DNA of 45,374 nucleotides, from the NCBI GenBank assembly GCA_013138675.1, contig WTCH01000145.1, positions 1 through 45,374 on the forward strand, written 5' to 3'. The notes below the pieces were generated by a model that had not been told where the DNA came from, made no database searches, and saw only the letters and a program-made list of their open reading frames with translations. The DNA comes from Woeseiaceae bacterium. Lineage in GTDB: Bacteria; Pseudomonadota; Gammaproteobacteria; Steroidobacterales; Woeseiaceae. Position 1 is the first letter of the stretch; each line of letters begins with the position of its first letter. Made by a program: the position numbers and the translations under genes. Shown here piece by piece: positions 13,188-41,826 of this stretch.

Positions 13188-14579
13188 TCAGCTTAGCCCG
13201 AGACGCGCCTGGATCTCGCGCCTGGCATCGGAGAGCACGGTATCGCGATCGAGACTGTTGAGAATCTGTTTGACGACATGTTTTGGTCCGCCCTCGCCCC
13301 AGGACTTGCCCTGTCCGAGATACTTCGATGCGACCTGCCCGACGACATAGGTGCTGTAGTACGCGATCGCACCCTGCGCCCCCGCGGTAACGATCGTGGA
13401 CAACCCTGCCGTCCCCACCTTGAGCGCACTCGAAACGAAATGCAGCGCCCAGACCGTGCCCATCAGCGCGGCTGACTCCGCGACAATCACCTTAACGAGT
13501 GAGCCGGCCTCTTTCTGGCTCAGCGGCAGGTCGTAGACGCGCGACAGGTGCACGACCATACCGACGTCAATGAAGGCTGCGGCAAACAGGTCTGCGACGG
13601 GCACCGGGTTGAAGGCGACGGCAATGCCTTTGCCTACGCAGTAGGTGCGTACGAGCTTCTCCCCAATTTCACGTCGTGCGGCGAGTATGCGCCGTCCCAC
13701 CTGGTCGCTGAGGTCTGCGGCGAACAGGCTGGCATTCAGTGCAGCAAGTGTTTTGCCCTCGGCATCCAGTATGTCCCACAGCCGCAGCCGCAGTTTTTCG
13801 ACATCGGGCTCTCTTTGTCGCTCACACTCAGTTTCATTTCCGTTTTCGTCAACCTCGACAACAATTTGCGGCCGCGGCTGCGCAGCGACAGCAAGGATAT
13901 GAGCAGGCTCAACCATGCCATCCGTTTTGTCGCGTATCGATTGCAACAGCGCCGCTTTCTCATCACTGGTGAACAAGTCGCTCTTGTTGAGTGCCAGTAG
14001 CACCGGGCGGCCCTGCGCCAGGAGAGTGCGCAAAGCGTGCAGCTCGGTATCGGTGATATCGCTGTCGAGTACGAAGATGACCAGGTCCGAGCGGCCGGCA
14101 ACCTCGCGCGCCATCGCCTCACGATCTTCGCCACCGGCTTCGTCCAGGCCGGGCGTATCAATCAGAAACACCCCGCCTGCCTCGACCTCGCTCCATGGCT
14201 GCATCGACGAGTGCCGCGTCTCCCCGTGCAGGGGGCTCACCGAAAAGGCCTCCTCACCGATCAACGCGTTCAACAAAGACGACTTGCCCGTGCTGACCCG
14301 ACCAAAAACGGCAAGATGCAGATATCCGTGTTCGAGCTTGTCGAACATGCCCTCAACGGCTTCGTAATCGTGTGCCAGAGATTCGCGCACACCATCGGGA
14401 AGGCGTGCGTCGTTGATTAATTCGCGCAGGCTTTCGCGCGCGAGTTCGAGATGATCTGAACCGTCGTTCGTTCCGGCTTCAGCTGTCGCCCGGTTTTTCT
14501 TCCAGGGCCATTTTGGCAACGTGGCGAACGCCCGCTTCAATATGTTCACTGATGCCTTCCTCGAATTCTTTCGCGGCAA
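13188..14579 (-). CDS. GTPase fused to DUF697/YcjF-like membrane-associated domain (paralogue 2)
   Basis: G1 GRVSTGKSS, G3 DTPG, G4 NKSD. The C-terminus is Gly/Ala-rich and hydrophobic. The start is uncertain: TTG 14579 overlaps the upstream gene by 101 nt, and the alternatives are GTG 14549 or GTG 14390. Confidence 0.7.
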   Translation of the reverse strand: MPRKNSRKASVNILKRAFATLPKWPWKKNRATAEAGTNDGSDHLELARESLRELINDARLPDGVRESLAHDYEAVEGMFDKLEHGYLHLAVFGRVSTGKSSLLNALIGEEAFSVSPLHGETRHSSMQPWSEVEAGGVFLIDTPGLDEAGGEDREAMAREVAGRSDLVIFVLDSDITDTELHALRTLLAQGRPVLLALNKSDLFTSDEKAALLQSIRDKTDGMVEPAHILAVAAQPRPQIVVEVDENGNETECERQREPDVEKLRLRLWDILDAEGKTLAALNASLFAADLSDQVGRRILAARREIGEKLVRTYCVGKGIAVAFNPVPVADLFAAAFIDVGMVVHLSRVYDLPLSQKEAGSLVKVIVAESAALMGTVWALHFVSSALKVGTAGLSTIVTAGAQGAIAYYSTYVVGQVASKYLGQGKSWGEGGPKHVVKQILNSLDRDTVLSDARREIQARLGLS

Positions 14580-15972
14580 CCTCAGGCACGAGCTCCCCGT
14601 GCTTTGACAACGTCATGACCAGACTTCGGCCCAGTGCATCGAAAATCAGTCCATAGGCCACGGCGTGAACCAGGCCGCCTGCTACCGTGCCAATGCCCGG
14701 AAATGCTTTCAGGCCGTTGCCGGCAACGGCCAGCGACAACGGCAGCGCACGCCCTACACGACTCTGGCTGAGGTTCAGAAATTCTTCGATGTCGAGATCA
14801 CGCGGCGTTGCGTCGTACAGCTTACAGAGTTCCTGGGTCATTGCGGTGCCTATGTAGCCCTGTATGAGCACATCGGTACCTGGACTTACAGCTGCAAGTG
14901 CTCCAACAACCGCCTTTCGCGTGCCATTGCGAATGATCTGCTCTGAACGCTGCACACGATACTGCGCTTCGGCCTCAGCCAGCTTGTCTGCCGCGAGCCT
15001 GAATACGGCGCGGTCGCGTCGCTCATCGATCTCCGCGGGATCTTCAAGCAGGCGATTGATAGCGACTACGAGAACGCCGATGTCAGCGGGGCGCTGGCGC
15101 TTCGTGGTCGATTCCAACCCGTTACTGGTCCGCTCGATAACGTCGGCCGCTCCTCCCGCTGTAACGGCGACGACGCGGTCCCTTTCGATTTCACCGCCCG
15201 CACGATCAAGATGTTCGAGCAAGCGTTGCATTAACGCAGCCTGCTCCTCGACTCCGAAACGATCGGATTTATTCATGACCATGACGAGTGGTTTGCCGAG
15301 AGACAACAGTTGCTCAACAGCTCCGGCTTCGGGGCGTGTCAGATCGCCATCACAAACAAACAACACAACATGTGAGCGTTGTGCTTCCTGCATCGCCACG
15401 TCGCCCAGACCTTCTTCATGGCCACCCATCCCCGGTACGTCGGTAAGCAGGATTTCATTGCCGGCGTCATTGCGCCATCGATAGTGCTGTACATCCGTTG
15501 TCGACCCGCCGAGCACATCGACAGAGACATCGGCCGTAGGAACGAGCGCCCTGATCAGCGAACTTTTGCCGGTGCTGATCTCACCAAAGAAGCACAAATG
15601 GATCGCCCCGCTTGCCTGGCGCGTTGCGAGTTCCTGCAGTTCCGACTGTGCCGCGCCAACATCGACACCGGCTGCTTCGGCCTCTTCAAGCCGGGCGCGA
15701 ATGTCAGACTGCGTGAGTTTTCGGGCCGCCTTCGTCCTGACATCGGGGATCTTTCGGCGCACGACCAGTCGCCAGATAAGCCAAAGCGCGGCAACAACCA
15801 GCACGACCATGATGGCCATATAACCGTACAGCAGAACCTTCGGGCCCTCGACGAGGCGGTCCCACACGTTGAGCGCCGACTCCGTGATGAACAGCAGTGC
15901 GCCGATCGCCACGACGAATAACAGCCCGATGACTGCTGCAATGCCGATCCTGATGAAACGGTCGAGTTTCAT
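14479..15972 (-). CDS. membrane-anchored GTPase fused to DUF697/YcjF-like domain (paralogue 1)
   Basis: ATG at 15972 (MKLDRFIRIG). Two N-terminal TM helices. G1 GEISTGKSS, G3 DVPG, G4 NKSD. Hydrophobic C-terminal module GNGLKAFPGIGTVAGGLVHAVAYG. Confidence 0.75.
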   Translation of the reverse strand: MKLDRFIRIGIAAVIGLLFVVAIGALLFITESALNVWDRLVEGPKVLLYGYMAIMVVLVVAALWLIWRLVVRRKIPDVRTKAARKLTQSDIRARLEEAEAAGVDVGAAQSELQELATRQASGAIHLCFFGEISTGKSSLIRALVPTADVSVDVLGGSTTDVQHYRWRNDAGNEILLTDVPGMGGHEEGLGDVAMQEAQRSHVVLFVCDGDLTRPEAGAVEQLLSLGKPLVMVMNKSDRFGVEEQAALMQRLLEHLDRAGGEIERDRVVAVTAGGAADVIERTSNGLESTTKRQRPADIGVLVVAINRLLEDPAEIDERRDRAVFRLAADKLAEAEAQYRVQRSEQIIRNGTRKAVVGALAAVSPGTDVLIQGYIGTAMTQELCKLYDATPRDLDIEEFLNLSQSRVGRALPLSLAVAGNGLKAFPGIGTVAGGLVHAVAYGLIFDALGRSLVMTLSKHGELVPEVAAKEFEEGISEHIEAGVRHVAKMALEEKPGDS

Positions 15973-16082
15973 AGTGATGCAGCTTGCCACACATCACCCG
16001 CAGGCGGCATATTCCTCACCTGCATGGCTCGGTTGACCGGCAACATCCTGTCGCCGGCCCTTCGGGCGCACTTCGTGCGTCC

Positions 16083-16153: not shown

Positions 16154-17947
16154 TTACAACTGTGCAGCCACCCAATCATTGATTTTGGCTTCGAGCATCG
16201 ACAGCGGCATCGGACCGTCCATCAATACCTGCGTATGGAAGTCCTTCACGTCGAACGCGTCACCGAGTTGATTTTCGGCGTAAGTGCGAAGTTCGCGAAT
16301 CTTGAGCTGCCCGATCTTGTAAGCCAGCGCCTGCCCGGGTATCGCCATGAAGCGTTCCGCTTCAGAGACTGCACGGGATTCCTTGACGGCAGAATTGGCG
16401 TACATGAAATCGAGGACGTCCTGGCGAGTCCACTCCTTGGCGTGCAAACCCGTGTCAACGACAAGACGGATTGCCCGCCAGAGTTCGGCATTGAGTGCAC
16501 CAAAGTACTGGTAAGGATCCGTATAGACGCCGATTTCCCTGCCGAGCGATTCGGCGTAAAGGCCCCAACCCTCGGTGAAGGCCGTGTAGCCTCCAAAGCG
16601 CCGGAACCCTGGCAACTCTTCGTTCTCGACCTGCAGCGAGCGCTGAAAGTGATGGCCAGGAATAGCTTCGTGCAGGAACAGGGATTCCATGGCCCAGATA
16701 GGACGTGACTTGATGTCATAGGCATTCGCGTAGAAGACACCAGGACGGCTGCCGTCCGGTGTGCCCGTTCGATAGGAACCGCCGGAAGACGATGCCTCGC
16801 GGAACGGCTCTACACGCCGAACTTCGAAACCGGTCTTCGGGAAAACATCGAACAACGACTTCGACAAGTCGGACACGTGATCCGACATGTCGCGATAACC
16901 CTGGATCAGGTCTTCGGGCTCATCGAAGTAGAACTGGTCGTCGCTGTTCAGATATTCGAAGAAGTCCTTGAGATCACCCTCAAAGCCAACCTCTTCCATG
17001 ACACCGAGCATCTCGCCGTGAATGCGCGCGACCTCATTGAGACCGATTTGATGAATCTCCTCGGACGTCAGGTTGGTCGTCGTGATTTGCTTGACCTTGT
17101 ACGCGTACCACTCAGATCCGTCTGGCAATGCATACAGGCCGACTGTCTCACGCGTAGCGCCCATGTACTCGTCGCCCATGAAGTTCGCCGTCCGCTTGTA
17201 AACCGGAAGAACTTTGGTCTCGATCGCGTCTTTAAATGCACCGGTCAGACGCTCGCGATCAGCCGTGCTGAACTCCTCAGGCATGTTCTCTATCGGCGCC
17301 CAGAATCCACTCTCTTCGGCCGTGTCGACAATTTGCGATTCGATCTGGGGCAACGATTTTTCCATGAGGATACGTGGCTGCACAACGCCCTGGCGCATAC
17401 CCTCTTTCATGTTCTCGACGGCCTGATCGGCATACACGACGAAGCCGTCGATACGTGCCAGCCAGTCGTCATAGTGCTTGACTGTTTTGAACGGGTGCAC
17501 ACTCGTGCCGCTGCCAAGTTGCACGAACGAATTCAGCGTCGAATAAAACTGATTAATTGGCTGCAGGTGCCCAGGGAAGCGATCGCCTTCCAGTGATTGC
17601 TCTCGATTCAACCTGAACATGTCGTAGCTCAGCTGATCCTGTCGCGACAGTTGTTCGCGATCGACCTCGAGCAATCTCGTAAGAAACTCCTCATCCATAA
17701 TGCGGTTGGCCTCGCGATGCTCCGGCCCGATTGAGTTGGCGAATTTGTCGTTGAAACGATAGTCGCCGATTGATGTTGCCCGCATGGGGTTAAGCTCGAG
17801 GCCGCGCTCAAAGAACTCGTCAAAAAGAGCGTGCAGCGTTACGGTGGGATCGGCAACCTCGGCTTGAGATTCCGTAGCGGGCTGTTCGTTACTGCAAGCG
17901 GCGATGAATAGCACCGCGGCCAATACGGCCGCAGATAGTTTTTTCAT
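16154..17947 (-). CDS. DUF885-family lipoprotein
   Basis: Start trimmed to the ATG at 17947 (MKKLSAAVLAAVLFIAAC lipobox), preceded by GAGAGGAG. HEAIPGHH and the overall length are typical of DUF885. Confidence 0.8.
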   Translation of the reverse strand: MKKLSAAVLAAVLFIAACSNEQPATESQAEVADPTVTLHALFDEFFERGLELNPMRATSIGDYRFNDKFANSIGPEHREANRIMDEEFLTRLLEVDREQLSRQDQLSYDMFRLNREQSLEGDRFPGHLQPINQFYSTLNSFVQLGSGTSVHPFKTVKHYDDWLARIDGFVVYADQAVENMKEGMRQGVVQPRILMEKSLPQIESQIVDTAEESGFWAPIENMPEEFSTADRERLTGAFKDAIETKVLPVYKRTANFMGDEYMGATRETVGLYALPDGSEWYAYKVKQITTTNLTSEEIHQIGLNEVARIHGEMLGVMEEVGFEGDLKDFFEYLNSDDQFYFDEPEDLIQGYRDMSDHVSDLSKSLFDVFPKTGFEVRRVEPFREASSSGGSYRTGTPDGSRPGVFYANAYDIKSRPIWAMESLFLHEAIPGHHFQRSLQVENEELPGFRRFGGYTAFTEGWGLYAESLGREIGVYTDPYQYFGALNAELWRAIRLVVDTGLHAKEWTRQDVLDFMYANSAVKESRAVSEAERFMAIPGQALAYKIGQLKIRELRTYAENQLGDAFDVKDFHTQVLMDGPMPLSMLEAKINDWVAAQL

Positions 17948-18029
17948 GGGAGCTCCTCTCGTTCGTAAGATTGGTGGCATAAGGTGGATGCTCATATGAC
18001 AGGCTACGGATGCATTTATTGTCGATGCG

Positions 18030-19577
18030 TCAGGCGCAGTTTTCCATAACCGGTGCAAACGCCGAAGACGCCATGCGGCATCCGGCAACAGTCTGGTGCA
18101 AAGTGAACGAGACGGGCTCCTTGCACCCCAGGGGGTGAAAGCCGATCAGTATCGTCACTCCGTGTTCTTGCCTGGTGTCGCGACGACAAAGGTCATCATC
18201 GCATTCAACAACGAAACGATCGGATTCGAACGCACCCATGCCCTCCAGTGCCGACAGGTAGGCCGTAACCAGGGAGCGAATGCGTTCAGCGACAGGTGTT
18301 TCGTCCGGTTCATACACGGCCCAACGTGTCGCCTGGTCGATCGAGTTGACGATCTGCAGGCACAGACGTCGTACCGGCAAGCTGGCGAATTTACGATGCG
18401 ATTCGCTGCCGCGGCCCATCGTCACCGAGCCGCGCAAACGTGCACGTCCGGCGGGGCCCGTCACGATCAGGTTAAGACCTTCGCGTGACAACACCTGCGT
18501 GTCTTCCTCATCGATATCGAAGGCCGCAATCAGCTCGCGAGAGAATCCCATACCCTGCTGATCGAGCGCCTGCCATGGACCATATATTCTATCGAGTTTG
18601 CACAGGAGGCCGGCCAATGCACCGCCCACCGCCCGCGGCGCACTATTTTCGTCAGTGCGACGAAACATGCGCGGGAAATAACTGATCGCGTTGGGGCTTG
18701 CCAGTCCGAGCTCACGCACTCCGGTCACCGCTTTTGCCGGCGTAACCCAGTCTGCAGGTGGATCAACGATGAGCATGGCGCCGCGCTCACGACAAAATAA
18801 TTCTGCTGCGAGCAAGGATGCCGGCCCAAGATCGCGACACTTACCTGGCGGCGGCAGGTACAAGAGATCCAATCCCTCGAGTTGCTGCAAAGCGAAAAGC
18901 CCGGTTTCCTCGCGGCGCGAACCAATCAGGTCATAGTCCGACAGCTCTTGCCCATCAGCACCTTCCTGCGCATGTTCGACGTACGCGTCATCAAAGCGCG
19001 TGTTTGGGCCTTGCGTCGGCTCTGGCCGATGGCTCGGATACGGGTGCTCTGCATCCGCCAGCTTCGATGTCAGCAGCAAATCTGCAATGAAGTTGTCGGC
19101 ATCCTCGCGGTAGTCGGCGCGACGGAACAGTTCCTGGTCCATGACGTGGCCAGTAGCCGGGTCGATGCGCTGCAGAGTCAGGTTAAAAAGTTCGTCATCA
19201 TCAATGCCATCAAAATCGACCGCCGCGCGGATTCGCTCGGTTGTGCCGGGGTCGACAGTCCGCAACACCAGGGCAGATCCGCTGGCGGGCAGACACAACA
19301 TTGCCCCCCGGGCGTTATTGGCAACCCGGACGATGTAGAGACGGCGTCCGCCGTGCTGGAAAAACTGCCGTACAGCCGGTCCGAGGCTCGAACGCGACCA
19401 GATGTCGCCGAAACGCCGGCGAAACTCGCCGAAGTCACGAACCAGGACCGGTTTATTCAGGGGGCCGCGAAGCGCACGGCCGACAAAGGCGGCCGTGGTA
19501 TCGGGCGACACGTCGATGGCTTGTTCCATCGGTGCCAATTCGGTGACCGTGATGCCACGGTCAACTGCATCCGACAA
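18030..19577 (-). CDS. phage-tail / contractile-injection-system sheath family protein, orphan and divergent
   Basis: TTG start with GGAGA 5 nt upstream. The N-terminal block GITVTEL...TTAAFVGRALRGPLNKPVLVRDFGEFRRRFG and the C-terminal blocks AISYFPRM, LPVRRLCLQIVNSIDQATRWAVYEPDETPVAERIRSLVTAYL and FVVECD follow sheath (PF04984-type) order and spacing. Confidence 0.75.
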   Translation of the reverse strand: MSDAVDRGITVTELAPMEQAIDVSPDTTAAFVGRALRGPLNKPVLVRDFGEFRRRFGDIWSRSSLGPAVRQFFQHGGRRLYIVRVANNARGAMLCLPASGSALVLRTVDPGTTERIRAAVDFDGIDDDELFNLTLQRIDPATGHVMDQELFRRADYREDADNFIADLLLTSKLADAEHPYPSHRPEPTQGPNTRFDDAYVEHAQEGADGQELSDYDLIGSRREETGLFALQQLEGLDLLYLPPPGKCRDLGPASLLAAELFCRERGAMLIVDPPADWVTPAKAVTGVRELGLASPNAISYFPRMFRRTDENSAPRAVGGALAGLLCKLDRIYGPWQALDQQGMGFSRELIAAFDIDEEDTQVLSREGLNLIVTGPAGRARLRGSVTMGRGSESHRKFASLPVRRLCLQIVNSIDQATRWAVYEPDETPVAERIRSLVTAYLSALEGMGAFESDRFVVECDDDLCRRDTRQEHGVTILIGFHPLGCKEPVSFTLHQTVAGCRMASSAFAPVMENCA

Positions 19578-19666
19578 GCTTGTCTCCGATACAGTTGGTC
19601 AGAAGTAGCACCGATTCTAATCAGTGGCCGCACCTTATGCTATTGAATTTCGATACTATTCAAGCG

Positions 19667-20725
19667 ATGAGTGATTTCCTGGCAAGCGCCTATCCCCGAC
19701 TTGCGAGCCGGATACCCAGGCTGCGGCTCGCCGAGCTGCCCACACCGATCGACACGGTGACACTGCGCACTGCCAGCGGTGAGCACGACATTTCGATCAA
19801 GCGCGACGACCTCACCGGCAGACTTTATGGCGGCAACAAGGTTCGCAAACTCGAATACCTGCTCCACAAAGCGCAGCGGAGAGACTCCCGCCACATAGCA
19901 ACGTTCGGTACGGTCGCGTCCAACCACGCGCTCGCGACGACACTGTACGCACGATCTCTCGGCTGTGAATGTACCTGCTTCCTTTCGCACCAAACCAAAA
20001 CAGCCAGCGCAACAAAGGCGCTGAACCTGCACTTGAAAATGAACACACACATCGTTCCTTATGGTGGCGACCGCAAAAATCGGGTCGCGACGCTGCGTGA
20101 ACATCTCACAGGCCAGCGCGTGTTCTTGATTCCACCCGGCGGATCCAACTGGCTCGGTGCGGTGGGCTTCGTAAACGCCGGCCTCGAACTCGCTGCACAG
20201 ATAGATGCAGGTGATATCGGAATACCCGATCGCCTTTACGTCGCCAATGGAACGATGGCAACGGCTGTTGGCATTGCGTTGGGGCTCGCGCTGGCGAGAT
20301 TGCCTACACAGGTACAGGCAGTCCAGGTCACGGAGAGCTTTGTCTCCAGCCCCCAGTCAATGCAGCGATTGCTGGCCAAGACGGCGTTTGCGCTACACCA
20401 GCTCGATGCGTCCGTGCCCATCGATCTCGCGGATCGCGCGAACTACCAGTTTCGAACGGGTTTTCTTGGCGAGGGCTATGCGAAAACCAACGATGCGACG
20501 GAGCGGGCGATTGCTGTTGCGCGCGATAAGCTCGGCGTTAACCTGGAAGCCACGTACACCGGCAAGGCCATGGCCGCCTTGCTCCAGGACCTGGACGAGA
20601 ATCGCGACGAGCGCGAAAATGTCCTGTTCTGGAATACCTACAATTCGAGGCCATTGGCTGCCGACATCGGGCGGCCGGCGAATACAGACAAACTACCGGA
20701 GGCTTTCCTGCGCTACTTCGACTAA
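19667..20725 (+). CDS. PLP-dependent 1-aminocyclopropane-1-carboxylate deaminase / D-cysteine desulfhydrase family protein
   Basis: The PLP-lysine motif GGNKVRKLEYLL, then GTVASNHA, then IPPGGSN. ATG 19667 is chosen, with 19637 as an alternative. Confidence 0.75.
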   Translation: MSDFLASAYPRLASRIPRLRLAELPTPIDTVTLRTASGEHDISIKRDDLTGRLYGGNKVRKLEYLLHKAQRRDSRHIATFGTVASNHALATTLYARSLGCECTCFLSHQTKTASATKALNLHLKMNTHIVPYGGDRKNRVATLREHLTGQRVFLIPPGGSNWLGAVGFVNAGLELAAQIDAGDIGIPDRLYVANGTMATAVGIALGLALARLPTQVQAVQVTESFVSSPQSMQRLLAKTAFALHQLDASVPIDLADRANYQFRTGFLGEGYAKTNDATERAIAVARDKLGVNLEATYTGKAMAALLQDLDENRDERENVLFWNTYNSRPLAADIGRPANTDKLPEAFLRYFD

Positions 20726-21853
20726 GCCAGTCGACTCCTGCAATTCCTCGTCGCCCTCACGAACTGCCTCGTCGATCATTTCACGCACTTCGGCGAGCGT
20801 CGGCGCCTCGGGATCGATCTCCACCGTGTTCCTGACGACGCGGGCACGTGTCATGACATCAGAATCATCGACAGCACCCAGGCGCGAGGGAACACCGTTC
20901 GCGACGGCAGCGACGCTGTGCGCATGCTGCAGCTCCTGTTCACTGAAGCCGGATTCCGTCTCCCCGTTCCACTTTTCCAGCAATAACTCGAGTCGCTCGT
21001 CCGCACCGACAGTGTCATCTTCCAACGGCGTATGACTCTCGAAGTAGATTTCACCATTCAGCTGCCCCATTAAGAATGGCTCATTGATGATGATCACGGT
21101 TTCACCGATATCGACGAGTTCGTAGAGGTACTCGATGTTCTCCGGATACAGCCGCACACAACCGTGGCTCACGCGCATGCCGACTCCGAACGGCTGGTTG
21201 GTGCCATGAATCAGGTATCCCGGCATATCCAGTTTCAGTACACGGTGTCCGAGTGGGTTCTCGGGACCGGGCGGAATAACCGAGGGCAGCGGATCACCGA
21301 GTTCGGCATGCTCCTGGCGCACGGACAGCGGCACATACCAGTGCGGGTCCTTCGCTTTAGCCGTAACCGTCGTCATGCCGAGTGGCGTTTCCCAGCCAAC
21401 ACGGCCGACACCGATCGGAAATGTCATCACAATTGCAGGCTGCCCTTTTGCGACCTCGGGAAAATAGAACAGGCGTTTGCTCGCAAGATTGAGAATGATG
21501 CCCTCGCGCGGCACATCGGGCAGAACGAACTGCGTCGGCAATAGCACCGGCGTGTTCTCGCCCGGCAGCCAGGGATCGATATCGGGATTCGCGGCAATCA
21601 GCTCGTCATAACCGAGACCATACGCCCGAGCGAAACCGGACAGCGTGTCATCGCTGCTTGTGAACACGACCTGTGGAATACCGACGACTGACTGCTCAGG
21701 TGATTCGAGCACGAAGTGATTCGCCAATATCGGATCTTCAACGGGCCGCTCTTCGAGCGACACAACGACCTCGGGCTCGCGCTTGTTAGGTGCAGTTCCG
21801 AAAAAGTCCTGTAGCGACGAACAGCCACCGGCCAACAGAAGTGACGGCAGCAA
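20693..21853 (-). CDS. L,D-transpeptidase (LysM + YkuD domain)
   Basis: LysM-like DTLSGFARAYGLGYDELIAANP. YkuD catalytic motif IHGTNQPFGVGMRVSHGCVRL. The only available start is a TTG, which gives a very short signal-like segment (MLPSLLLAGGC), so the N-terminus is uncertain. Confidence 0.75.
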   Translation of the reverse strand: MLPSLLLAGGCSSLQDFFGTAPNKREPEVVVSLEERPVEDPILANHFVLESPEQSVVGIPQVVFTSSDDTLSGFARAYGLGYDELIAANPDIDPWLPGENTPVLLPTQFVLPDVPREGIILNLASKRLFYFPEVAKGQPAIVMTFPIGVGRVGWETPLGMTTVTAKAKDPHWYVPLSVRQEHAELGDPLPSVIPPGPENPLGHRVLKLDMPGYLIHGTNQPFGVGMRVSHGCVRLYPENIEYLYELVDIGETVIIINEPFLMGQLNGEIYFESHTPLEDDTVGADERLELLLEKWNGETESGFSEQELQHAHSVAAVANGVPSRLGAVDDSDVMTRARVVRNTVEIDPEAPTLAEVREMIDEAVREGDEELQESTGLVEVAQESLR

Positions 21854-28871: not shown

Positions 28872-30554
28872 TTAGCCGGCGGGCATCAGCGGCGGTAGTT
28901 GTTCGTTGTTTTCCGTCGTTTCGTCTTTGAGGACGGAGAATGAGCGGATCGCGGCAGCGAGCGCTTCACCATCGAACTCACCGCGTCTTGGCCCGTAGCT
29001 CAGACTCGAAAATCTGTCGAGTTCACTGGCAAGGTCCGGTGATACGCGACTTGCCAGGCTACCGATACTCCGTGGTGTATTTTCCGGCCATTCAAGTGCC
29101 GCCCAATCAAGCAACGATTGTTTAACACTTGCAGCATCTCCGGCACGCGCTGCTTTGCGCGCGGACTTCAGCAGTCGTGACTGCCGTTTGTGCAAGGGCA
29201 CAGGCGCCGGCTCACGCGGCTCTCGTTTAACCGGTCGCGACGTCCACCACCACGCCAGCAGCGTTACGAGCCATACCGCAGCCAGCAGTTCGCTGACACG
29301 CCGCCAGAATCCGCCCGACATCAGGGTCGGCGCGGCGTCGCTATTCGTTTCTGCGTCTGCGCCGTCCACGGCTGCAGTTTCCGCCTCCGGCTCGGGCAGA
29401 GGCGCTTCACCGGACGGCTGTATCGTGATGCTCCTTTCAGGCAGTCGGGCAACTTGCCATTCGGACGTTGTCGTATTCCACCAAGGTACTTCAAGCGCTG
29501 GCAGCGTAACGACGCCCGCCGTAACGCCGATCATTGCGTACTGGTCTTTGCGAATGCCTCGAATGCCACCGGACTCGATGCGTCGGCTGAGTTCTGGTTT
29601 GTCGGGATACACGTTTATGCCGTCAGCCGACGGCGTCTCCAGCGCCGGAATCTGGGTCTCGAGTTGCCCCAGCGCACTGATCGTGACGTGCCGCGTCAGC
29701 GGCTCGCCGGCTTTGACCTCACCCGGTTCTCGTGACCATTCTTCGCTGAGCTGCAAGTCGCGCGCTGGCAGCCAGACCGCATCCGGAAATTCATCAGGGC
29801 GCGGCGGAATCGACTGCACCGTGATGACCTGGGGCTCGGACTCAAAGACCTTGCGACCGGTTATTCGGCCATTTCTCAATACACGCGCCTCGAAGCGCGC
29901 CGGCGAGATTTCGATGCTGCCGCTTTCCTGCGGATATAACGCGTAAACCCGCTCAACGACGTTGTACGCCGTGCCATCGATGACCGCCTCATAGCTGCGA
30001 TCGTCTCCTGCCATTTCGCTGAGCACCTCGACGCCGCTGATCGTCGGGTCCCGCAAGGCCGGCTGGCGGGTCGCTACGGACCGGTAGATCTTGATCGTCA
30101 GGAGGACCTGGGCCTGTACATAGGTTTCATTGAAATCGACTTCGCTCGTCAGAAACACTTCGGCGACACCCGGCGGCGCGTAGCTGGGCTCACTCACTGT
30201 AATAATCAGTGGGTCGCTTTGCTCAGTCCCGACTGAGACCGGCGGAATCGTCATCTGGCCTGCGCGCTTCGGCATCAGCACGTACGTCCACGTCTTGCTG
30301 CGGCGAATCTGGCCGTTAACGATCGTCGTATTACTGAGCTGACTGCCCTGCCCGATATAAAAGTCCTGCTCGAGGACCGAGATGTCCGGCTGCAGATCAA
30401 TGTTTGCGTCCGTGATGACCTCGAGAGTGAACGACTCATTCAGCTCAATGTCCGCGCGATCAACGCGCGTCGTCACGGCGGCAAACGACTGCACGGAAAG
30501 CAGCAGTACCGATAATGTAATCCACGCTGTCTGTCGCAGCTTGATCCCTACCAC
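28872..30554 (-). CDS. batD: BatD-family (oxygen tolerance) protein
   Basis: GTG start and a signal peptide. A large beta-rich ectodomain, a late TM helix (LLAAVWLVTLLAWWW) and a cytoplasmic tail. Last gene of the MoxR/VWA operon. Confidence 0.7.
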   Translation of the reverse strand: MVGIKLRQTAWITLSVLLLSVQSFAAVTTRVDRADIELNESFTLEVITDANIDLQPDISVLEQDFYIGQGSQLSNTTIVNGQIRRSKTWTYVLMPKRAGQMTIPPVSVGTEQSDPLIITVSEPSYAPPGVAEVFLTSEVDFNETYVQAQVLLTIKIYRSVATRQPALRDPTISGVEVLSEMAGDDRSYEAVIDGTAYNVVERVYALYPQESGSIEISPARFEARVLRNGRITGRKVFESEPQVITVQSIPPRPDEFPDAVWLPARDLQLSEEWSREPGEVKAGEPLTRHVTISALGQLETQIPALETPSADGINVYPDKPELSRRIESGGIRGIRKDQYAMIGVTAGVVTLPALEVPWWNTTTSEWQVARLPERSITIQPSGEAPLPEPEAETAAVDGADAETNSDAAPTLMSGGFWRRVSELLAAVWLVTLLAWWWTSRPVKREPREPAPVPLHKRQSRLLKSARKAARAGDAASVKQSLLDWAALEWPENTPRSIGSLASRVSPDLASELDRFSSLSYGPRRGEFDGEALAAAIRSFSVLKDETTENNEQLPPLMPAG

Positions 30555-32350
30555 GGTTGCACCTCGTCGTCCGGCCAGGTGTTATTGCCATCCTGGTCCT
30601 TGCCGGTTTTTTGATATTGATAGCGGAATTTGCGCCGCAGCAGGCCACCCGGATCATTCGGGATGCGCCGCAGCCATTGCTCCATTGCCTGTTCCTGTTC
30701 CTGCTCACGCCGCAGCGCTTCAAGCTCTTCGGGCGTCAGCTGTTGTTGTGCCATTTGCTGTTCGTTTTGCGCAGCTTCCTCGGCGGCGCGCTGCAGTTCT
30801 TCCTGCATAGCCTGAAGGTCTTCCTCGCTGGCCTCCTGATCATCGCGCTGCGAGGCGTCACCCTCCTCCGACTGACTGTCCGACTGCGAGTTGCTGTCCT
30901 CACTTTGCTGCTCTGACTCACTCTCACTGTCGGACTGCTCGCCTTCGCCCTGCTGCTCGGATGACTCCTGCTCGTCGCCTTCGTTCTGTTGCTGCTGTTG
31001 TTCCTGAACCTGCTTCAAGAGGTCGCGATTGTACTCCGCGTCTTCATTGTCCGGCTCGAGCTCCAACACTTGTTCGTAGGCGTCAATCGCGGATTCGAAT
31101 TCCCCCTGGCGCGCCATCGCGTTGCCGAGGTTATAGAGGTTTCGAGTATCTTCCTGCTCAGCGAATGCCGCAGCACTTGTCTCATAATCTGCAGCGCGAT
31201 AATTCGCGACGGCCTGCCAGCCCGGATTCTCGAACAGTTCGGCCGCATCAGCCGCAGCGCCCTCGTCGAGCAGCTGTTGCGCTTGCTGGTCCTTCGTCTG
31301 CCAGAGGTCGTTCCAAACTGATGCTTGTGCTTGGTTTCCAAATGGCAGGATGAATAAAAAAATGACCGCAATATAACCACGCCGAAACGCCATGGCGGCA
31401 ATTGGCAATAGCAACAGCACGAGCCAGGGGCCCTCTTCGCGCCAATGGTCTGTCGCGAGATTCTCATCGCCTGCCTGTCGGCTGCCCGCCTCTCCGCTCA
31501 ACAGGTAGTCCAGATCGCGATCATCGGTCGAGAGTACTGAGAACCGTCCGTCGCCCGCCGCTGCGAGCCCTCGCAGCGAATGTTCCTCGAGGCGCGGCAC
31601 CGCGATATTGCCGGACTGATCCGTAACAAAACCGCCGCTGACCCGTGGGATGGGCGCACCTTCTGCTGTGCCGACCGCGAGTATTGACAGCGTAAACCCG
31701 GAGCCCTTGAGGTCGCGGGCAATGCGTTCGGCTGCCGGGGACGAACTGCCGTCAGTAATCAGCAGAATCTCACCAACGCCGGCACCCGCCTGCTCCAGTA
31801 GTTGCCGGCCCTTGTTGATGGCGGCAATCGGATAACTGCCACGACTCGGCATGATGTCGGTACTCAGGCTGTTGACGAGTGCGGCGATGGTGTCGTTGTC
31901 CGTCGTCAGCGGGGTGACTGTGAACGCGTTAGCCGAGTACACAACGAGTGCGGTCTGACCGCTGCCACGTCGCTCGAGCATGTCGAGTATCTTCAGGCGT
32001 GCCCGAATCAGACGGCTCGGCGCAATGTCCTGCGCATCCATCGAGCGCGACAGGTCAAGAGCAATGACGAGCGCCTGGTCGGAACGAAACACGGGTTGTT
32101 CGACGCGCTGCCAGGCCGGACCCGCTATTGCAACTGCCGCGATTACCCCGCCGAGGCCAAGCAACCACCAGCGATAATCGGCGCGGCGGGTGGCGCTGCG
32201 TGACAGGACGTGCGGTGCGAGTGCGGCATCCACTACGTGCTGCCAGCTACCCGGACCGAGCTGGCGCCGCGCGAGCAAAATCGTACAGGCGATCACGGCC
32301 GGGACAGCCCAGAGCCATTCGGGGCGCAGGAAGTGAAACTCAGCCAGCAT
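30548..32350 (-). CDS. batB: VWA-domain membrane protein fused to TPR region and poly-acidic tail (BatB/BatC-like)
   Basis: Start trimmed to MLAEFHFLRPEWLW. MIDAS motif ALDLSRSMD. TPR-like YNLGNAMARQGEFESAIDAYEQVLELEPDN. About 90 aa of Gln/Glu/Asp/Ser low complexity. Confidence 0.8.
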   Translation of the reverse strand: MLAEFHFLRPEWLWAVPAVIACTILLARRQLGPGSWQHVVDAALAPHVLSRSATRRADYRWWLLGLGGVIAAVAIAGPAWQRVEQPVFRSDQALVIALDLSRSMDAQDIAPSRLIRARLKILDMLERRGSGQTALVVYSANAFTVTPLTTDNDTIAALVNSLSTDIMPSRGSYPIAAINKGRQLLEQAGAGVGEILLITDGSSSPAAERIARDLKGSGFTLSILAVGTAEGAPIPRVSGGFVTDQSGNIAVPRLEEHSLRGLAAAGDGRFSVLSTDDRDLDYLLSGEAGSRQAGDENLATDHWREEGPWLVLLLLPIAAMAFRRGYIAVIFLFILPFGNQAQASVWNDLWQTKDQQAQQLLDEGAAADAAELFENPGWQAVANYRAADYETSAAAFAEQEDTRNLYNLGNAMARQGEFESAIDAYEQVLELEPDNEDAEYNRDLLKQVQEQQQQQNEGDEQESSEQQGEGEQSDSESESEQQSEDSNSQSDSQSEEGDASQRDDQEASEEDLQAMQEELQRAAEEAAQNEQQMAQQQLTPEELEALRREQEQEQAMEQWLRRIPNDPGGLLRRKFRYQYQKTGKDQDGNNTWPDDEVQPW

Positions 32351-33374
32351 CGGCTTCTGCTCCGTCCAGGCGCCGCAGTGCGAGGCTCTGCAACAGGCTG
32401 ACAACACATAGGAGACCGGCCAGCGCGAACGCTCCACCGAGCGGCCAGAAATAGTGCGACTTGACCGGACGAAAGCCCGCCTCAGGTTCGTCGACGGGCT
32501 CAAGCTCATCGACAAGCCGGTATATGTCCTGCAGCCCGGCCGTATCCTTGGCGCGGAAATAGCGGCCGCCCGTCATCTCGGCGATTCCGGTCAACGTCTC
32601 TTCATCAAGATCTGCTGACGGGTTGATATTGCGGCTACCGCCGATCAGCGACGAAACCTGCATCTGTTCGGCGCCGATACCGATAGTGTAAATGCGCAGG
32701 CCGACCTGCTGCGCAAGTTGCGCGGCTTTCATCGGCTCAATCTCGCCGGCCGTATTGGCGCCATCGGTTAACAGCACAAGGACCTGTTCGCTGGCATCGA
32801 CCTGCTGGTCATGGATGCGCTTGACCGCGAGTGTTATGGCGTCGCCGATGGCTGTCTTCTCGCCTGCCAGACCGATAAATGCCTCGAGCAGTAGCACCTT
32901 GACCGTTTCCCGATCCAGCGTCAGGGGCACTTGCAGGTAGGCGCGCTCGCCAAACAGGATGAGTCCGATACGATCGCCTTCGCGACGGCTGATGAAATCA
33001 CTCGCCACCGCCTTGGTCGCGGTCAGCCGGTCAACGCGACGGCTACCGAGTTCAAAATCTTTCTGGTCCATGCTGCCCGACAGATCGACGGCGAGCATGA
33101 GATTGCGACCGGACACCGGCACATCGAGTTCATCACCGATGCGCTCGGGCCGTGCGGCTGCCACGACCAGCAAGATCCACGCCGTTGCTGCCAGCCAGAA
33201 GCGCCAATTCAAAAATTGCTCTAAATCAGGTCGTTGAGAGAGCGTCGAGAAAAATGACAGCGATGGCACCTTGAGGCCCGCATCCTGCAGTGTCGGCGAC
33301 TCCGACATCAGCTTGCGAGCGATGAACGGTAGCGGCAACGCCAGCATTGCCCACGGCCAGGCGAACGACCACAT
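32340..33374 (-). CDS. batA: VWA-domain membrane protein BatA-like
   Basis: Start trimmed to MWSFAWPWAMLALPLPF. MIDAS motif AVDLSGSMD. C-terminal TM helix. Confidence 0.8.
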   Translation of the reverse strand: MWSFAWPWAMLALPLPFIARKLMSESPTLQDAGLKVPSLSFFSTLSQRPDLEQFLNWRFWLAATAWILLVVAAARPERIGDELDVPVSGRNLMLAVDLSGSMDQKDFELGSRRVDRLTATKAVASDFISRREGDRIGLILFGERAYLQVPLTLDRETVKVLLLEAFIGLAGEKTAIGDAITLAVKRIHDQQVDASEQVLVLLTDGANTAGEIEPMKAAQLAQQVGLRIYTIGIGAEQMQVSSLIGGSRNINPSADLDEETLTGIAEMTGGRYFRAKDTAGLQDIYRLVDELEPVDEPEAGFRPVKSHYFWPLGGAFALAGLLCVVSLLQSLALRRLDGAEADAG

Positions 33375-33865
33375 CAGCGACGTCCTCCGACCGGCGTTGC
33401 CAGGCGCTGGCGCACGGCCGCCACGACATCGACCAGTTCGAATGCCGACAGGTCGTCGTCGGGCTTGCGATACGGCAACTCGAGCAGCTTGCGACCGGCG
33501 TCGCTCGTGAATCGGGGTTGATCGAGGTCGCGATCCAGCCATTTCAGCCAGGCATCACCTGTCAGGCCCGCAACCTCCTGTCGAGGTGCGTACGCGAGCA
33601 TCGTACGTCGCAGCAATTCTGAGACATCGCTGCTAAACGCCACGGTATCGCGGTGTTGCTCGAACGCCACGGTCAGTTCATTGAGTTGTCGCAGCGCATG
33701 GCGGCGCGCCGCACCGCGGGCTCGCGTATTGAGATACAGCCGGAACAGGTAGATCAGTGCGCCAGCGACGAGCGCAATAACGACCCACCATCCGGGCGCG
33801 AGAGGCCACCAGCTGATCGCCTCGGGCAGGTGCAGGTCGCGCAGCGGAATCTGCTCAGGATCCAT
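33374..33865 (-). CDS. DUF4381 domain protein
   Basis: LRDLHLPEAISWWPLAPGWW followed by a TM helix is the DUF4381 signature. 1-nt stop/start overlaps on both sides. Confidence 0.75.
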   Translation of the reverse strand: MDPEQIPLRDLHLPEAISWWPLAPGWWVVIALVAGALIYLFRLYLNTRARGAARRHALRQLNELTVAFEQHRDTVAFSSDVSELLRRTMLAYAPRQEVAGLTGDAWLKWLDRDLDQPRFTSDAGRKLLELPYRKPDDDLSAFELVDVVAAVRQRLATPVGGRR

Positions 33866-34806
33866 CAGTGCCTCCTTTTGCCAAGTGCCGTCTGCAACGC
33901 AGTCACAGGATCGTCCTCGGTGGACAGTGGCATCAGGTGAACGCCGTAACGCTTGCAGAAGGCCTCGAGCTCCTGGGTACGCGCCTGGAACGCCTCGCGA
34001 TAGTCTTTGCGCGCAGCTTTGGCAACCGTATCAATAGCCAGCTCGTTGTCATTCGAGACGAGACGATAGCGACCTGGCGGCGGCAACTGTCTTTCCAGGG
34101 GGTCATTGAGGAATACCGCGAGCACTTCGTTGTGCCGCGCCACGTTCGACAGGTACGACTGCGCACCGCGCGAGAAACCAACGAAGTCGCTCAAAACAAC
34201 AACCAGGCTGCCGGGACGCGCAACCCTGCGCAGTGATGACATCGCCTGGGTCAGTGGTTCCGTGTCATCGCTGGCGAGATAGCGATTGCCCCAGTCGGGG
34301 TGCTCGGCAAGCTGGTGAACGAAACGCAGCGCAGCCTGCCGGCCGAGACGCGGCTTGAGTTCGCGATGCGTGGTATCACCAAAAATCAGGCCACCCAGCC
34401 GATCACCGCGATGGTGGGCCGCCCATGACAAGAGTGCCGCTGCGCGGCTGGCGTTGACCGACTTGAAACACCCGCGTGTCGCGAAATGCATGTTCGCGCG
34501 CAGGTCGACCACAACGAGCACCGGGCGTTCACGCTCTTCGCGAAACAGTTTGGTATACGCCGTTGTGCTGCGCGCGGTGACGCGCCAGTCGATGCTGCGC
34601 GGATCGTCTCCGGGCTGGTAGGGCCGGGACTCGTCGAACTCCATGCCACGACCACGGAAATGCGACACGTAGGCGCCGGTCTGCAGTGAGTTGACGCGCA
34701 CCACATTCAGGGCAATCGCACGCGCAGGCGCGTTGAGCCGGATCAGACCGGACTGGCTCACGCTGACGGGCGATGCGTCTTCGGGTAAATGATCGAGCAG
34801 TGCCAT
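33865..34806 (-). CDS. DUF58 domain protein (VWA-like, MoxR partner)
   Basis: GRGMEFDESRPYQPGDDPRSIDWRVTAR is the DUF58 signature. Located directly downstream of moxR. Confidence 0.85.
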   Translation of the reverse strand: MALLDHLPEDASPVSVSQSGLIRLNAPARAIALNVVRVNSLQTGAYVSHFRGRGMEFDESRPYQPGDDPRSIDWRVTARSTTAYTKLFREERERPVLVVVDLRANMHFATRGCFKSVNASRAAALLSWAAHHRGDRLGGLIFGDTTHRELKPRLGRQAALRFVHQLAEHPDWGNRYLASDDTEPLTQAMSSLRRVARPGSLVVVLSDFVGFSRGAQSYLSNVARHNEVLAVFLNDPLERQLPPPGRYRLVSNDNELAIDTVAKAARKDYREAFQARTQELEAFCKRYGVHLMPLSTEDDPVTALQTALGKRRH

Positions 34807-34817
34807 TGGCGTTCCGC

Positions 34818-35786
34818 TTACGGTACTCCGACGCCGTCGAGCAGTCGCTCAATGATGGAGTTCTCGCTGACACCGTCTGCCTCGGCCTCGAAGCTCAGCA
34901 CGATGCGGTGGCGCAGCACATCCGCCGCGACGTCCTGGATATCTTCAGGGCCAACGAAATCACGACCGGCCAGCCAGGCGCGCGCACGCGCTGCCCGGTC
35001 GATACCCATGCTGGCACGCGGGCTTGCGCCGTACATGACCTGACCGTCGAGAGACTCATCGACACGGCCCGGATCGCGTGTTGAGACGACCAGGTTAACA
35101 ATGTATTCCTCGAGTTCGTCGGCGAGATGCAGGCCCAGGATGTCCTGGCGCGCCTGCATGATCGATCCCATCGCCAGCAGTTCGGGTGGCCGGAAGGCGT
35201 CCCGTTCCCCGGCTTTTGCCTCGTCCCGGTTCAATACCAGGATCCGGCGCTCGTCGGCGATGGTCGGGTAACCGACTTCGACGTGCAGCAGAAATCGATC
35301 AAGCTGCGCCTCGGGCAGTGGATACGTGCCTTCCTGCTCAATGGGGTTCTGGGTTGCCATTACCATGAACAGGTCTTCGAGCCCGTAACTCCGGTCGCCG
35401 ACCGTGATCTGGCGCTCCTCCATCGCCTCCAGCAGCGCAGACTGTACTTTGGCCGGTGCTCGGTTGATCTCATCGGCAAGAATCAGGTTGTGAAACAACG
35501 GGCCCTTGCGGAACTCGAAGGTGCCCTCCTGCGGGCGGTAAATATCGGTACCCGTCAGATCCGCCGGCAACAGGTCGGGCGTGAACTGCAGGCGATGAAA
35601 ATCTCCCTCGATACTCTCGGCGAGAACCTTGATGGCCCGGGTCTTGGCCAGTCCCGGCGCGCCTTCTACCAACAGGTGGCCATCACACAGCAAGGCGATC
35701 AGCATGCGATTAATAAGGTGTGACTGCCCGATGATCAGGCTGCTCGCATGCTCCTCAAGCTGTTGGAATTGTTCTACAACGCTCAT
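34818..35786 (-). CDS. moxR: MoxR-family AAA+ ATPase
   Basis: Walker A EGAPGLAKT, Walker B LADEINRA, then ATQNPIEQEGTYPLPEAQLDRF. ATG at 35786, one codon inside the TTG of the ORF track. Confidence 0.9.
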   Translation of the reverse strand: MSVVEQFQQLEEHASSLIIGQSHLINRMLIALLCDGHLLVEGAPGLAKTRAIKVLAESIEGDFHRLQFTPDLLPADLTGTDIYRPQEGTFEFRKGPLFHNLILADEINRAPAKVQSALLEAMEERQITVGDRSYGLEDLFMVMATQNPIEQEGTYPLPEAQLDRFLLHVEVGYPTIADERRILVLNRDEAKAGERDAFRPPELLAMGSIMQARQDILGLHLADELEEYIVNLVVSTRDPGRVDESLDGQVMYGASPRASMGIDRAARARAWLAGRDFVGPEDIQDVAADVLRHRIVLSFEAEADGVSENSIIERLLDGVGVP

Positions 35787-35924
35787 CAATTACTCCGGTC
35801 AAAAATCGGCGTGCCATTTTAGAGAGGATGCGCGGGAGAACCAACCAGTCGCTGCATTTTTTGCGAATGTTGGGCCCACTTCGGTAATAATGCTCCCTCT
35901 TTGGACTTGAACCGACCCTAACCA

Positions 35925-36530
35925 TTGCAGGAAATTCAGAATAAATGCGCTCTTGCGCGCGCTTTTGCTTTATTCCGAGGCTTATTCCTGACCGTTCTGA
36001 CGGTCCTTACGGCGTGCGGATCGGCCACGGAACCCGAATCGATTGCTGACGTCGCGCCCGAGGAGGAACCCGTCCTCCTGTGCGGCAACGAGGGTCGCCT
36101 CTGGACCGAACTGTACGGTGCGATTGCCATCGAAGTGGACTGGAACAAAAACGATCTGGAATGCGCGGGCATGCCAAGGCCTGACGGCCGGGGTGCCCGA
36201 CTGCGATTCACCGGTAAAACCGCCGACGGCGATCTGCAACTCGCTATCATCATCGCTATTCCGGACCTGGAGCGCGATGCACAGAATGGGGAGTTCAGCG
36301 TCAACGTCACGCTCATAGAAGAGGGTAACGGGCGTTTCTTCAGCACACCGGATAACAACAATTGCCTGGTTGATATTACGTCCGCGACCGCGCTCGACGA
36401 CTCGGGTGGCCGCTACTCGATTGCCGGAGAGCTTTTCTGCGTTACGCCATTGCCCGAGATCAATGGCGACTCGAGCGTGTCGGTCCCGAAAATGCTGTTT
36501 TCCGGCTTGCTCGACTGGGGCTCTTTGTGA
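35925..36530 (+). CDS. hypothetical lipoprotein
   Basis: Lipobox LTAC after a hydrophobic stretch. The only in-frame start is the TTG at 35925. I do not recognise the family. Confidence 0.5.
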   Translation: MQEIQNKCALARAFALFRGLFLTVLTVLTACGSATEPESIADVAPEEEPVLLCGNEGRLWTELYGAIAIEVDWNKNDLECAGMPRPDGRGARLRFTGKTADGDLQLAIIIAIPDLERDAQNGEFSVNVTLIEEGNGRFFSTPDNNNCLVDITSATALDDSGGRYSIAGELFCVTPLPEINGDSSVSVPKMLFSGLLDWGSL

Positions 36531-41738: not shown

Positions 41739-41826
41739 CTTTGTTACACTCTCCGCGCCGGGGAACTGGTGTGGGCTGTAACGGTCCGAGTTAGCAGGGC
41801 ACAATTGGCCTTACAGAGAAACGAAG

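Follow-up and report, generated by a model that had tools for sequence, protein, structure and literature searches.

A sheath-like gene among housekeeping genes

The stretch of DNA analysed here, which we call the window, comprises 45,374 nucleotides (positions 1 to 45,374 of contig WTCH01000145.1) from a Woeseiaceae bacterium (Gammaproteobacteria; assembly GCA_013138675.1). On its minus strand, an open reading frame (ORF) at 18030..19577 codes for a product of 515 amino acids (aa) that we describe as a stand-alone sheath-fold protein, on the basis of the ORF itself, its homology to contractile sheaths, its predicted fold and the purifying selection acting on it. The ORF starts with TTG, 5 nt downstream of a Shine-Dalgarno sequence, GGAGA (19587-19583); both are present as claimed in a preliminary description made from the sequence alone, and every peptide block that it quoted from the product is found in the translation. 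The deduced protein (56.7 kDa, pI 5.1) contains neither a signal peptide nor a transmembrane segment (maximum 19-aa hydropathy of 1.1), and members of its family are currently labelled in databases as "hypothetical protein" or "phage tail sheath protein FI".

The main ORFs of at least 150 aa in the window were scanned with Pfam, and ten ORFs located at its ends or without a Pfam match were scanned with PHROG. No tail gene was detected among the scanned ORFs (those shorter than 150 aa were not scanned), be it for a tube, a baseplate (gp25-like or gpJ-like), a spike (VgrG or gp27-gp5), a tape measure, a cap or an AAA+ tail protein, which bears out for this set the earlier claim that no phage gene is visible in the 45 kb; we therefore refer to the gene as an orphan. 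The window is housekeeping DNA, with genes for Rho, a DEAD helicase, HAD, IMPase, a rhodanese, PlsB, DsbA, two dynamin-like/DUF697 GTPases, DUF885, a pyridoxal phosphate (PLP)-dependent enzyme, YkuD, M48 and S49 peptidases, LipA, OmpA, a Bat/MoxR operon, SDR, thiolase, XerD-DsbC, a Nudix hydrolase and an extracytoplasmic function (ECF) sigma factor. The orphan is flanked downstream by the gene for a DUF885 lipoprotein (16154..17947, minus strand; Pfam PF05960, 1.4e-168) and upstream by the divergent gene for the PLP enzyme (PALP; 19667..20725, plus strand, with its real start at 19667; Pfam PF00291, 1.6e-30), which agrees with the neighbours named at the outset. Its G+C content (0.59-0.60) is like that of its surroundings (0.55-0.60), also as first described.

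Homology to contractile sheaths and predicted fold

The window protein matched the "tail sheath" family PHROG_23 (1.5e-30) and, in phmmer comparisons with the PDB, the sheath of Halogeometricum borinquense (9ezm_A, 6.8e-23) and that of the contractile injection system (CIS) of Streptomyces coelicolor (8bky_A, 4.2e-19), followed by Afp2 and Pvc2 (~1e-8). Likewise, a profile of the Woeseiaceae family retrieved 8bky_A (1.5e-30) and a second CIS/archaeal sheath match (3.5e-29). When aligned by hhalign with 20 canonical sheaths of ~510 aa, it gave a probability of 100% and an E value of 9.5e-82 over 490 columns, which are co-linear from residue 1 to residue 498 of the window protein. The Pfam scan, however, yielded no sheath match for the window protein, to either PF04984 or PF17482, even at E<=1; among 27 orthologues, 23 matched PF17482 at E<=0.01 (best 2.3e-8) and only one matched PF04984.

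AlphaFold2 produced a poor model from an alignment of Woeseiaceae sequences only, with a predicted local distance difference test (pLDDT) score of 53, and was rerun on an alignment of 95 sequences that included distant orphans and canonical sheaths. The resulting monomer model of the window protein (pLDDT 89.8, predicted template modelling score 0.89) contains the core formed by the N- and C-terminal parts and the outer domains inserted into it that define the sheath fold. Foldseek retrieved 92 PDB matches at E<=1e-3, and all 50 of those listed are sheath proteins. The best was 9ezm (1.2e-26; template modelling score, TM, 0.66/0.70), and 9gts had the highest TM among the matches listed (TMt 0.77); T4 gp18, phiCD508, Lin1278, P1, S. 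coelicolor CIS, PVC, AFP and R-pyocin sheaths are also on the list. Profile and structure comparisons thus returned significant sheath matches, and together the sequence and the predicted structure unambiguously identify the ORF as a true contractile-sheath homologue, with the model showing that the full three-domain sheath fold is kept. From the initial assignment to PF04984-type sheaths, the homology stands by PHROG, hhalign and Foldseek, but the window protein fails the models of PF04984 and PF17482 themselves.

Selection, synteny and distribution

The sheath-like gene is full-length and intact in all 82 Woeseiaceae copies. The ratio of nonsynonymous to synonymous substitutions (dN/dS) with respect to its closest relative, L003 (dS 0.35; we number the loci L001 to L093), is 0.075, and is 0.151 for PALP and 0.134 for YkuD in the same pair. 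The median for the family is 0.19 (533 pairs with dS <1.5), compared with 0.12-0.23 for neighbouring housekeeping genes. These sequence comparisons show that purifying selection acts on the gene as strongly as on the surrounding housekeeping genes, and the check for frameshifts and neutral evolution in relatives, suggested in the preliminary description, revealed no neutral decay.

The protein database contains more than 120 clusters with 64-98% identity, all of 515-520 aa, from Woeseiaceae and from metagenome-assembled genomes (MAGs) of Gammaproteobacteria, and cultured Lentisalinibacter spp. (Woeseiaceae) also carry the gene (e.g. WP_405232290.1). Scanning one genome per GTDB species, we found relatives in at least 429 species genomes; the best 80 of these loci are all of Woeseiaceae type, with 60-95% identity. 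These 80 loci were mapped by tblastn with the window proteins only, and genes in inserted cassettes were annotated only in L001. The pair formed by the divergent PLP enzyme and sheath-like genes is present in all the Woeseiaceae loci that extend far enough to include both genes, which answers positively the synteny test proposed earlier for these two genes; the adjacency of DUF885 is variable. Three MAGs contain two syntenic PLP-sheath-DUF885 copies (L013/L023, L042/L043 and L004/L027), which are probably due to mixed-strain bins rather than to true paralogues.

An exhaustive search of representative sequences revealed a continuum of relatives down to 30% identity. At greater distance there are ~60 representative clusters of the orphan family, of ~520 aa each, which lack the two motifs GVWKAPAG and VWGARTL, both of them present in the clearly canonical representatives. 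In a neighbour-joining tree, which is crude, the canonical sheaths with both motifs form one clade and all the motif-less proteins lie outside it. We sampled nine of the distant clusters, corresponding to 11 places in other Gammaproteobacteria (L083-L093; 34-39% identity), and Pfam annotation of 10 kb to each side called no tail gene in any of the 11. Specifically, genes for tube, baseplate, spike, tape measure, cap or AAA+ tail proteins were not found within 10 kb to either side in the annotated contexts L001, L002 and L083-L093, and the neighbouring ORFs without known function of the distant orthologues had no tail match, including to a hidden tube or baseplate protein, in PHROGs or Pfam. 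No tail gene, then, lies beside the sheath-like gene in any genome examined. IMG/VR (2.9 million viral contigs) contains no member of the family.

The longer contexts share a backbone across clades, with YkuD, M48, S49, LipA and OmpA on one side of the sheath-like gene and, in the distant ones, a MGMT-like gene, an abhydrolase, PlsB, IMPase, DEAD and Rho on the other. In distant relatives the neighbours are 41-69% identical (PlsB, 42-45%; PALP, 41-43%; LipA, 67-69%) where the sheath homologue is 34-39% identical, so that the latter has simply kept pace with the divergence of the genome.

A phage-type gene standing by itself might also be what is left of a decaying prophage or tailocin, devoid of function. 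We give this explanation virtually no chance and consider it refuted by what selection and synteny show: none of the 82 Woeseiaceae copies is disrupted, dN/dS lies at 0.075-0.19, the gene is kept in the same chromosomal backbone down to 34% identity, its G+C content is native, and it is not flanked by an integrase, an att site or any other phage gene. Conversely, the proposal that the orphan is an ancient sheath gene, kept and perhaps exapted, and not the scar of a recent prophage, gains support from the fold, the intactness of the gene, dN/dS, synteny, the distant orphans and the native G+C content.

Shifted constraint along the protein

The "handshake" arms of sheaths are present in the sequence. 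The N-terminal arm, MSDAVDRGITVTEL... (codons 1-27; 19497..19577, minus strand), is conserved within Woeseiaceae and aligns with the canonical PGVYVEE arm through the stretch GITVTE of the window protein; G8 and I21 are conserved at >=75% in orphans and canonical sheaths alike. Within Woeseiaceae, residues S2, T10, V11, T12, E13, M17 and I21 are invariant, and the entropy of the arm is 0.50 versus 0.85-1.06 for the middle and C-terminal domains. In the monomer model, residues 1-27 have no secondary structure (pLDDT 38-73 for residues 1-20 and <50 for residues 1-10) and residues 509-515 are likewise unstructured, as would be expected for the arms of a sheath in its monomeric state.

At the other end, the last strand aligns with the canonical C-terminus up to residue 498, where the hhalign alignment ends with the last residues of the canonical profile. 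It is followed by a 16-aa extension, CRMASSAFAPVMENCA (codons 500-515; 18033..18080, minus strand), that is conserved in Woeseiaceae, and in the monomer model an extra strand of the orphan C-terminal extension (residues 499-504) is placed beside the last canonical strand. The C-termini of the family differ among clades, ending in ...AFAPVMENCA in Woeseiaceae and in a conserved ...WQPGLALAG tail in many distant clades (P0151, P0158, P0167, P0173 and others). The C-terminal tail might serve as a tag for recognition or degradation.

The beta-rich insertion (outer) domain, delimited by the secondary structure of the model and by column analysis, spans codons 91-200 (18978..19307, minus strand) and contains the orphan-specific conserved residues E114, D123, Q136, R137, Q148, T188 and Y199; others in the outer domains are D214, Y215, S220 and G251. 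Residues 121-140 of the insertion domain have an entropy of 1.56 in distant orphans, compared with 2.24 in canonical sheaths. The opposite occurs in the C-terminal part of the conserved core (codons 331-488; 18114..18587, minus strand), with altered motifs and relaxed constraint: its mean entropy is 2.59 in orphans, among their worst conserved regions, and 1.28 in canonical sheaths, where it is the best conserved. Alignment with canonical sheaths shows that GVWKAPAG has become GPWQALDQ in the window protein, and VWGARTL has become LRGSVTM, the same two altered blocks that had been noticed in the preliminary description. The positions that are >=80% conserved in canonical sheaths and lost in orphans cluster at residues 332-347 (GVWKAPAG) and 372-389 (VWGARTL), with more of them at 397-406, 423-430 and 445-488, in the C-terminal core.

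The conserved core made of the N- and C-terminal parts of sheaths is the portion that contacts the tube and is responsible for assembly (PMC9230969). Column by column, the sequences show that constraint is distributed the opposite way to that in working sheaths, with a relaxed C-terminal core and a tight N-terminal core and insertion domain, as expected if the tube were gone and the former outer surface had acquired a job. A metal or Fe-S site was also considered and dropped: there is no family-wide set of cysteines, and only C262 and C459 are general, both of them common to canonical sheaths.

This pattern is relevant to the idea that the protein is a displaced component, that is, the working sheath of a CIS whose tube, baseplate and spike genes are elsewhere in the chromosome. 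The full-length sheath architecture, including both arms, has been retained, as this idea would predict, but the core for tube contact and assembly is precisely the region without canonical motifs and without constraint. Moreover, no tail gene occurs within 10 kb in the annotated contexts or among the scanned ORFs of the window, and in at least 429 species the gene has the character of a core gene in conserved synteny. As a rule, CIS clusters have a patchy distribution, move horizontally and carry their sheath and tube genes side by side. We thus see a displaced component as improbable.

The combination of a sheath-like fold and arms with an altered core would also suit an anti-phage decoy, a host mimic that co-assembles with the sheath of an infecting myovirus and poisons tail assembly or contraction, by a speculative analogy to other assembly-interference systems. 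Nevertheless, the sheath-like protein and the PLP enzyme match no PADLOC defence model, and the gene lies outside any defence island, with a fixed housekeeping position, a core distribution and a slow purifying evolution that are unlike those of typical defence genes. Its nearest relatives, in addition, are CIS sheaths and not the sheaths of phages of these hosts, and such a role is very unlikely.

Leader and start codon

An alignment of 82 upstream regions showed that the 89-bp divergent intergenic region (19578..19666) includes a leader, on the minus strand (19578-19622), that is conserved throughout Woeseiaceae. It contains, in this order, a -10-like TAGAAT (19619-19614), TCTGAC (19603-19598), the GGAGA and the TTG start, which is invariant across Woeseiaceae and also found in the distant L091 and L092. 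This conservation argues for a dedicated and maintained promoter and start. A generic sigma-70 scan detected no promoter in the leader, and a terminator scan was uninformative. The leader TCTGAC is complementary to GTCAGA/GTCGGA at codons 1-3. A regulatory hairpin TCTGAC...GTCAGA enclosing the Shine-Dalgarno sequence and the start was rejected as a candidate, with RNAalifold giving no convincing consensus structure.

Neighbouring genes and other features of the window

The product of the downstream DUF885 gene has a lipoprotein-type signal, MKKLSAAVLAAVLFIAAC, with its start at ~17947. In Woeseiaceae loci, the sheath-like gene is followed directly by DUF885, by DUF885 beyond a cassette of ~4.5 kb, or by the GTPase pair, DUF885 being absent from some relatives; both DUF885 and the GTPase pair are variable neighbours across contexts. 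The cassette (11629-16015 in L001) contains an ECF sigma factor, two small ORFs, DUF1800 and DUF1501, and is also found in about half of L003-L082; it is absent from the window, in which positions 17948-18029 separate the two genes.

The PLP enzyme belongs to a family of D-cysteine desulfhydrase, 1-aminocyclopropane-1-carboxylate deaminase and CuyA-like proteins, although its NCBIfam matches, to TIGR01275 (7.6e-48) and CuyA (4.5e-50) among them, are all below the respective equivalog cut-offs. PALP is a constant neighbour throughout Woeseiaceae and, together with EamA, in some distant clades, whereas L087, L091 and L092 lack it. In L083 and L090 the enzyme is paired with an EamA-type exporter and is still divergent to the sheath-like gene. 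Further upstream, the gene for a YkuD-type L,D-transpeptidase identified in the Pfam scan (20693..21853, minus strand, as the sheath-like gene) is the most widely kept upstream neighbour across the orphan family (contexts L085, L087, L088, L091 and L092), and in L088 it overlaps the start of the sheath-like gene. Its persistence, however, is explained by general backbone synteny.

Outside Woeseiaceae, a GGACT/AIG2-like gene comes after the sheath-like gene in L083, L085, L088-L091 and L093 (6947-7486 in L090), and in L092 (11541-12143), where the two overlap by 26 nt. In these orthologues, the sheath-like gene is also convergent to a fused hydantoinase/oxoprolinase gene and an SSF transporter, in what resembles a gamma-glutamyl-cycle neighbourhood.

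Elsewhere in the window, two tandem dynamin-like GTPases, the second with DUF697 (13188-15990, minus strand), match the PADLOC models LeoA/LeoBC (8e-15 to 5e-21) and NCBIfam slr1306; the pair belongs to the conserved housekeeping backbone and not to a defence island. A tyrosine recombinase (Phage_integrase at 40797-41738, with SAM_1) lies directly upstream of DsbC, both within 40797-42579. It was discarded as a prophage integrase, being XerD-like and in the usual xerD-dsbC arrangement. A complete Bat/MoxR-type operon (28872-35789, minus strand) comprises MoxR AAA+, DUF58, VWA, VWA-TPR and BatD. Three ORFs of 201, 275 and 160 aa (35925-37240 and 360-842) had no match in Pfam or PHROG, and the presence of a ferric-reductase-like membrane ORF at 36822-37580 on the opposite strand suggests that some of the match-less ORFs are spurious overlapping frames.

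Proposed explanation

We are highly confident of the descriptive part of our interpretation, namely that the gene encodes a stand-alone, vertically inherited and selected sheath-fold protein with an inverted constraint pattern. The protein would derive from a CIS sheath of the ~510-aa class seen in Streptomyces and haloarchaeal systems, through a single early capture in a gammaproteobacterial lineage that includes Woeseiales, followed by vertical inheritance as a single-copy core gene. We infer that it acts without a tube and without injection. By analogy with sheaths, and judging from its sequence, the retained arms might allow it to self-associate into rings or into a polysheath-like, non-contractile assembly in the cytoplasm, which would expose the conserved outer domain as its working surface, for binding a partner or a ligand. 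It is the retention and strong conservation of the N-terminal arm and the C-terminal strand, although they are disordered in the monomer, that makes it most likely that the protein still self-associates.

Several observations weigh against this picture of a tube-less assembly. Across distant orphan clades, the entropy of the N-terminal arm is 2.71 versus 1.73 in canonical sheaths, that of the C-terminal strand is 2.91 versus 1.62, and the GIxVxE motif is apparently missing in several clades; variable arms and the apparent loss of the motif weaken a universal retention of polymerisation by strand exchange. The relaxed C-terminal core also holds assembly surfaces, and polymerisation itself may therefore have been lost. 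The conserved TTG suggests a modest level of expression rather than that of a structural protein, and no universal operon partner emerged across the annotated contexts, nor any that points to a process.

These same features lend themselves to another explanation, in which the sheath fold was exapted as a non-polymerising protein that exists in solution as a monomer or a small oligomer and has taken on a new function in binding, regulation or catalysis. Such a role would be carried by the insertion and middle domains (E114, D123, Q136, R137, Q148, Y199, D214, Y215 and S220), consistent with the clustering of orphan-specific conserved residues in the outer domains, with the relaxation of the C-terminal core and both arms across distant clades, and with the conserved TTG start. 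The extension strand at 499-504 could, in the predicted structure, self-complement the site that in real sheaths is filled by the arm of a neighbour. On the other hand, the N-terminal arm is disordered in the monomer and yet among the best conserved parts of the protein in Woeseiaceae, which is hard to explain without an intermolecular partner, and Pfam and NCBIfam scans detected no catalytic motif or known ligand-binding family. We regard a non-polymerising role as a possible but rather unlikely alternative.

The full statement of our proposal, a domesticated tube-less sheath including self-assembly, is put forward tentatively, with a chance that we place somewhat short of even. More doubtful still is that it represents a new class, a "sheath-only" domestication in which a sheath was captured once, before a divergence beyond the level of order, was stripped of tube and baseplate, and is now a native, tube-less, self-assembling cytoplasmic ring, nanotube or filament in Woeseiales and their relatives. 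As cultured Lentisalinibacter carry the gene, the question is open to direct testing.

Comparison with known systems

The best matches of the orphan in both sequence and structure are the CIS sheath of S. coelicolor (8bky, 8bl4, 9gtp, 9gts) and the sheath of H. borinquense (9ezm; PMC11566945). With these Streptomyces and haloarchaeal sheaths (~510-540 aa) it shares a co-linear multi-domain architecture and the N-terminal arm motif; unlike them, it lacks GVWKAPAG and VWGARTL and has a 16-aa C-terminal extension. Their genes are part of full CIS clusters, and the proteins wrap a tube; in the genomes sampled, the orphan has no gene for a tube, baseplate, spike or cap in its vicinity. Canonical metagenome sheaths of ~500-530 aa (e.g. 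P0203 and P0213) show 30-38% identity to the orphan over their full length, but form a separate clade with both motifs, and the C-terminal core, in which they are most conserved, is where the orphans are conserved least. The sheaths of extracellular CIS of the Afp2/Pvc2 type and of R-type pyocins (6rao, 6j0b, 3j9q) have the core fold in common with the orphan (Foldseek E values of 1e-11 to 1e-12) and a similar C-terminal domain (phmmer, 2e-8), although they are much shorter (~350-390 aa) and have no insertion domain. To our knowledge, they are always encoded beside tube genes.

By its sequence and predicted fold, then, the orphan is a member of the sheath superfamily, and it fails the system-level features of a contractile machine, which are an adjacent tube gene, baseplate genes and the core motifs. 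All the described sheaths that we know of work inside a multi-gene contractile machine, be it a phage tail, a tailocin, an extracellular CIS or a type VI secretion system (T6SS). In the literature searched, we found neither an account of a sheath gene that stands alone nor a report of CIS or T6SS in Woeseiaceae. Woeseiales and their relatives have been described as very abundant in marine sediments, and a core gene of such a dominant clade that resembles a viral hallmark ("tail sheath") could mislead the prediction of prophages and viruses.

There is a mechanistic precedent for a sheath without a tube, since sheath proteins expressed alone polymerise into polysheaths (PMC9230969 and PMC6357053). 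Those of T4 gp18 and of gp053 from phage FV3 (PMC6357053) are stable tubes formed without tube or baseplate. Polysheaths are by-products of the overexpression of tail proteins, without a physiological role, whereas the tube-less state would be native in the case proposed here. A conceptual parallel is provided by encapsulins, stand-alone cellular genes with the HK97 capsid fold, in which a virus-derived self-assembling protein is under purifying selection (PMC8987985). Encapsulins differ from the orphan sheath in fold and geometry, and have known cargo and shells. The orphan family, for its part, is a single-gene, core-genome family kept by purifying selection over a divergence that takes PlsB to 42-45% identity. 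If our interpretation is true, the sheath fold would have a second, non-injection cellular life; and a native tube-less assembly, if one exists, would put the fold to a categorically new use, as the tail-sheath counterpart of the capsid-derived encapsulins.

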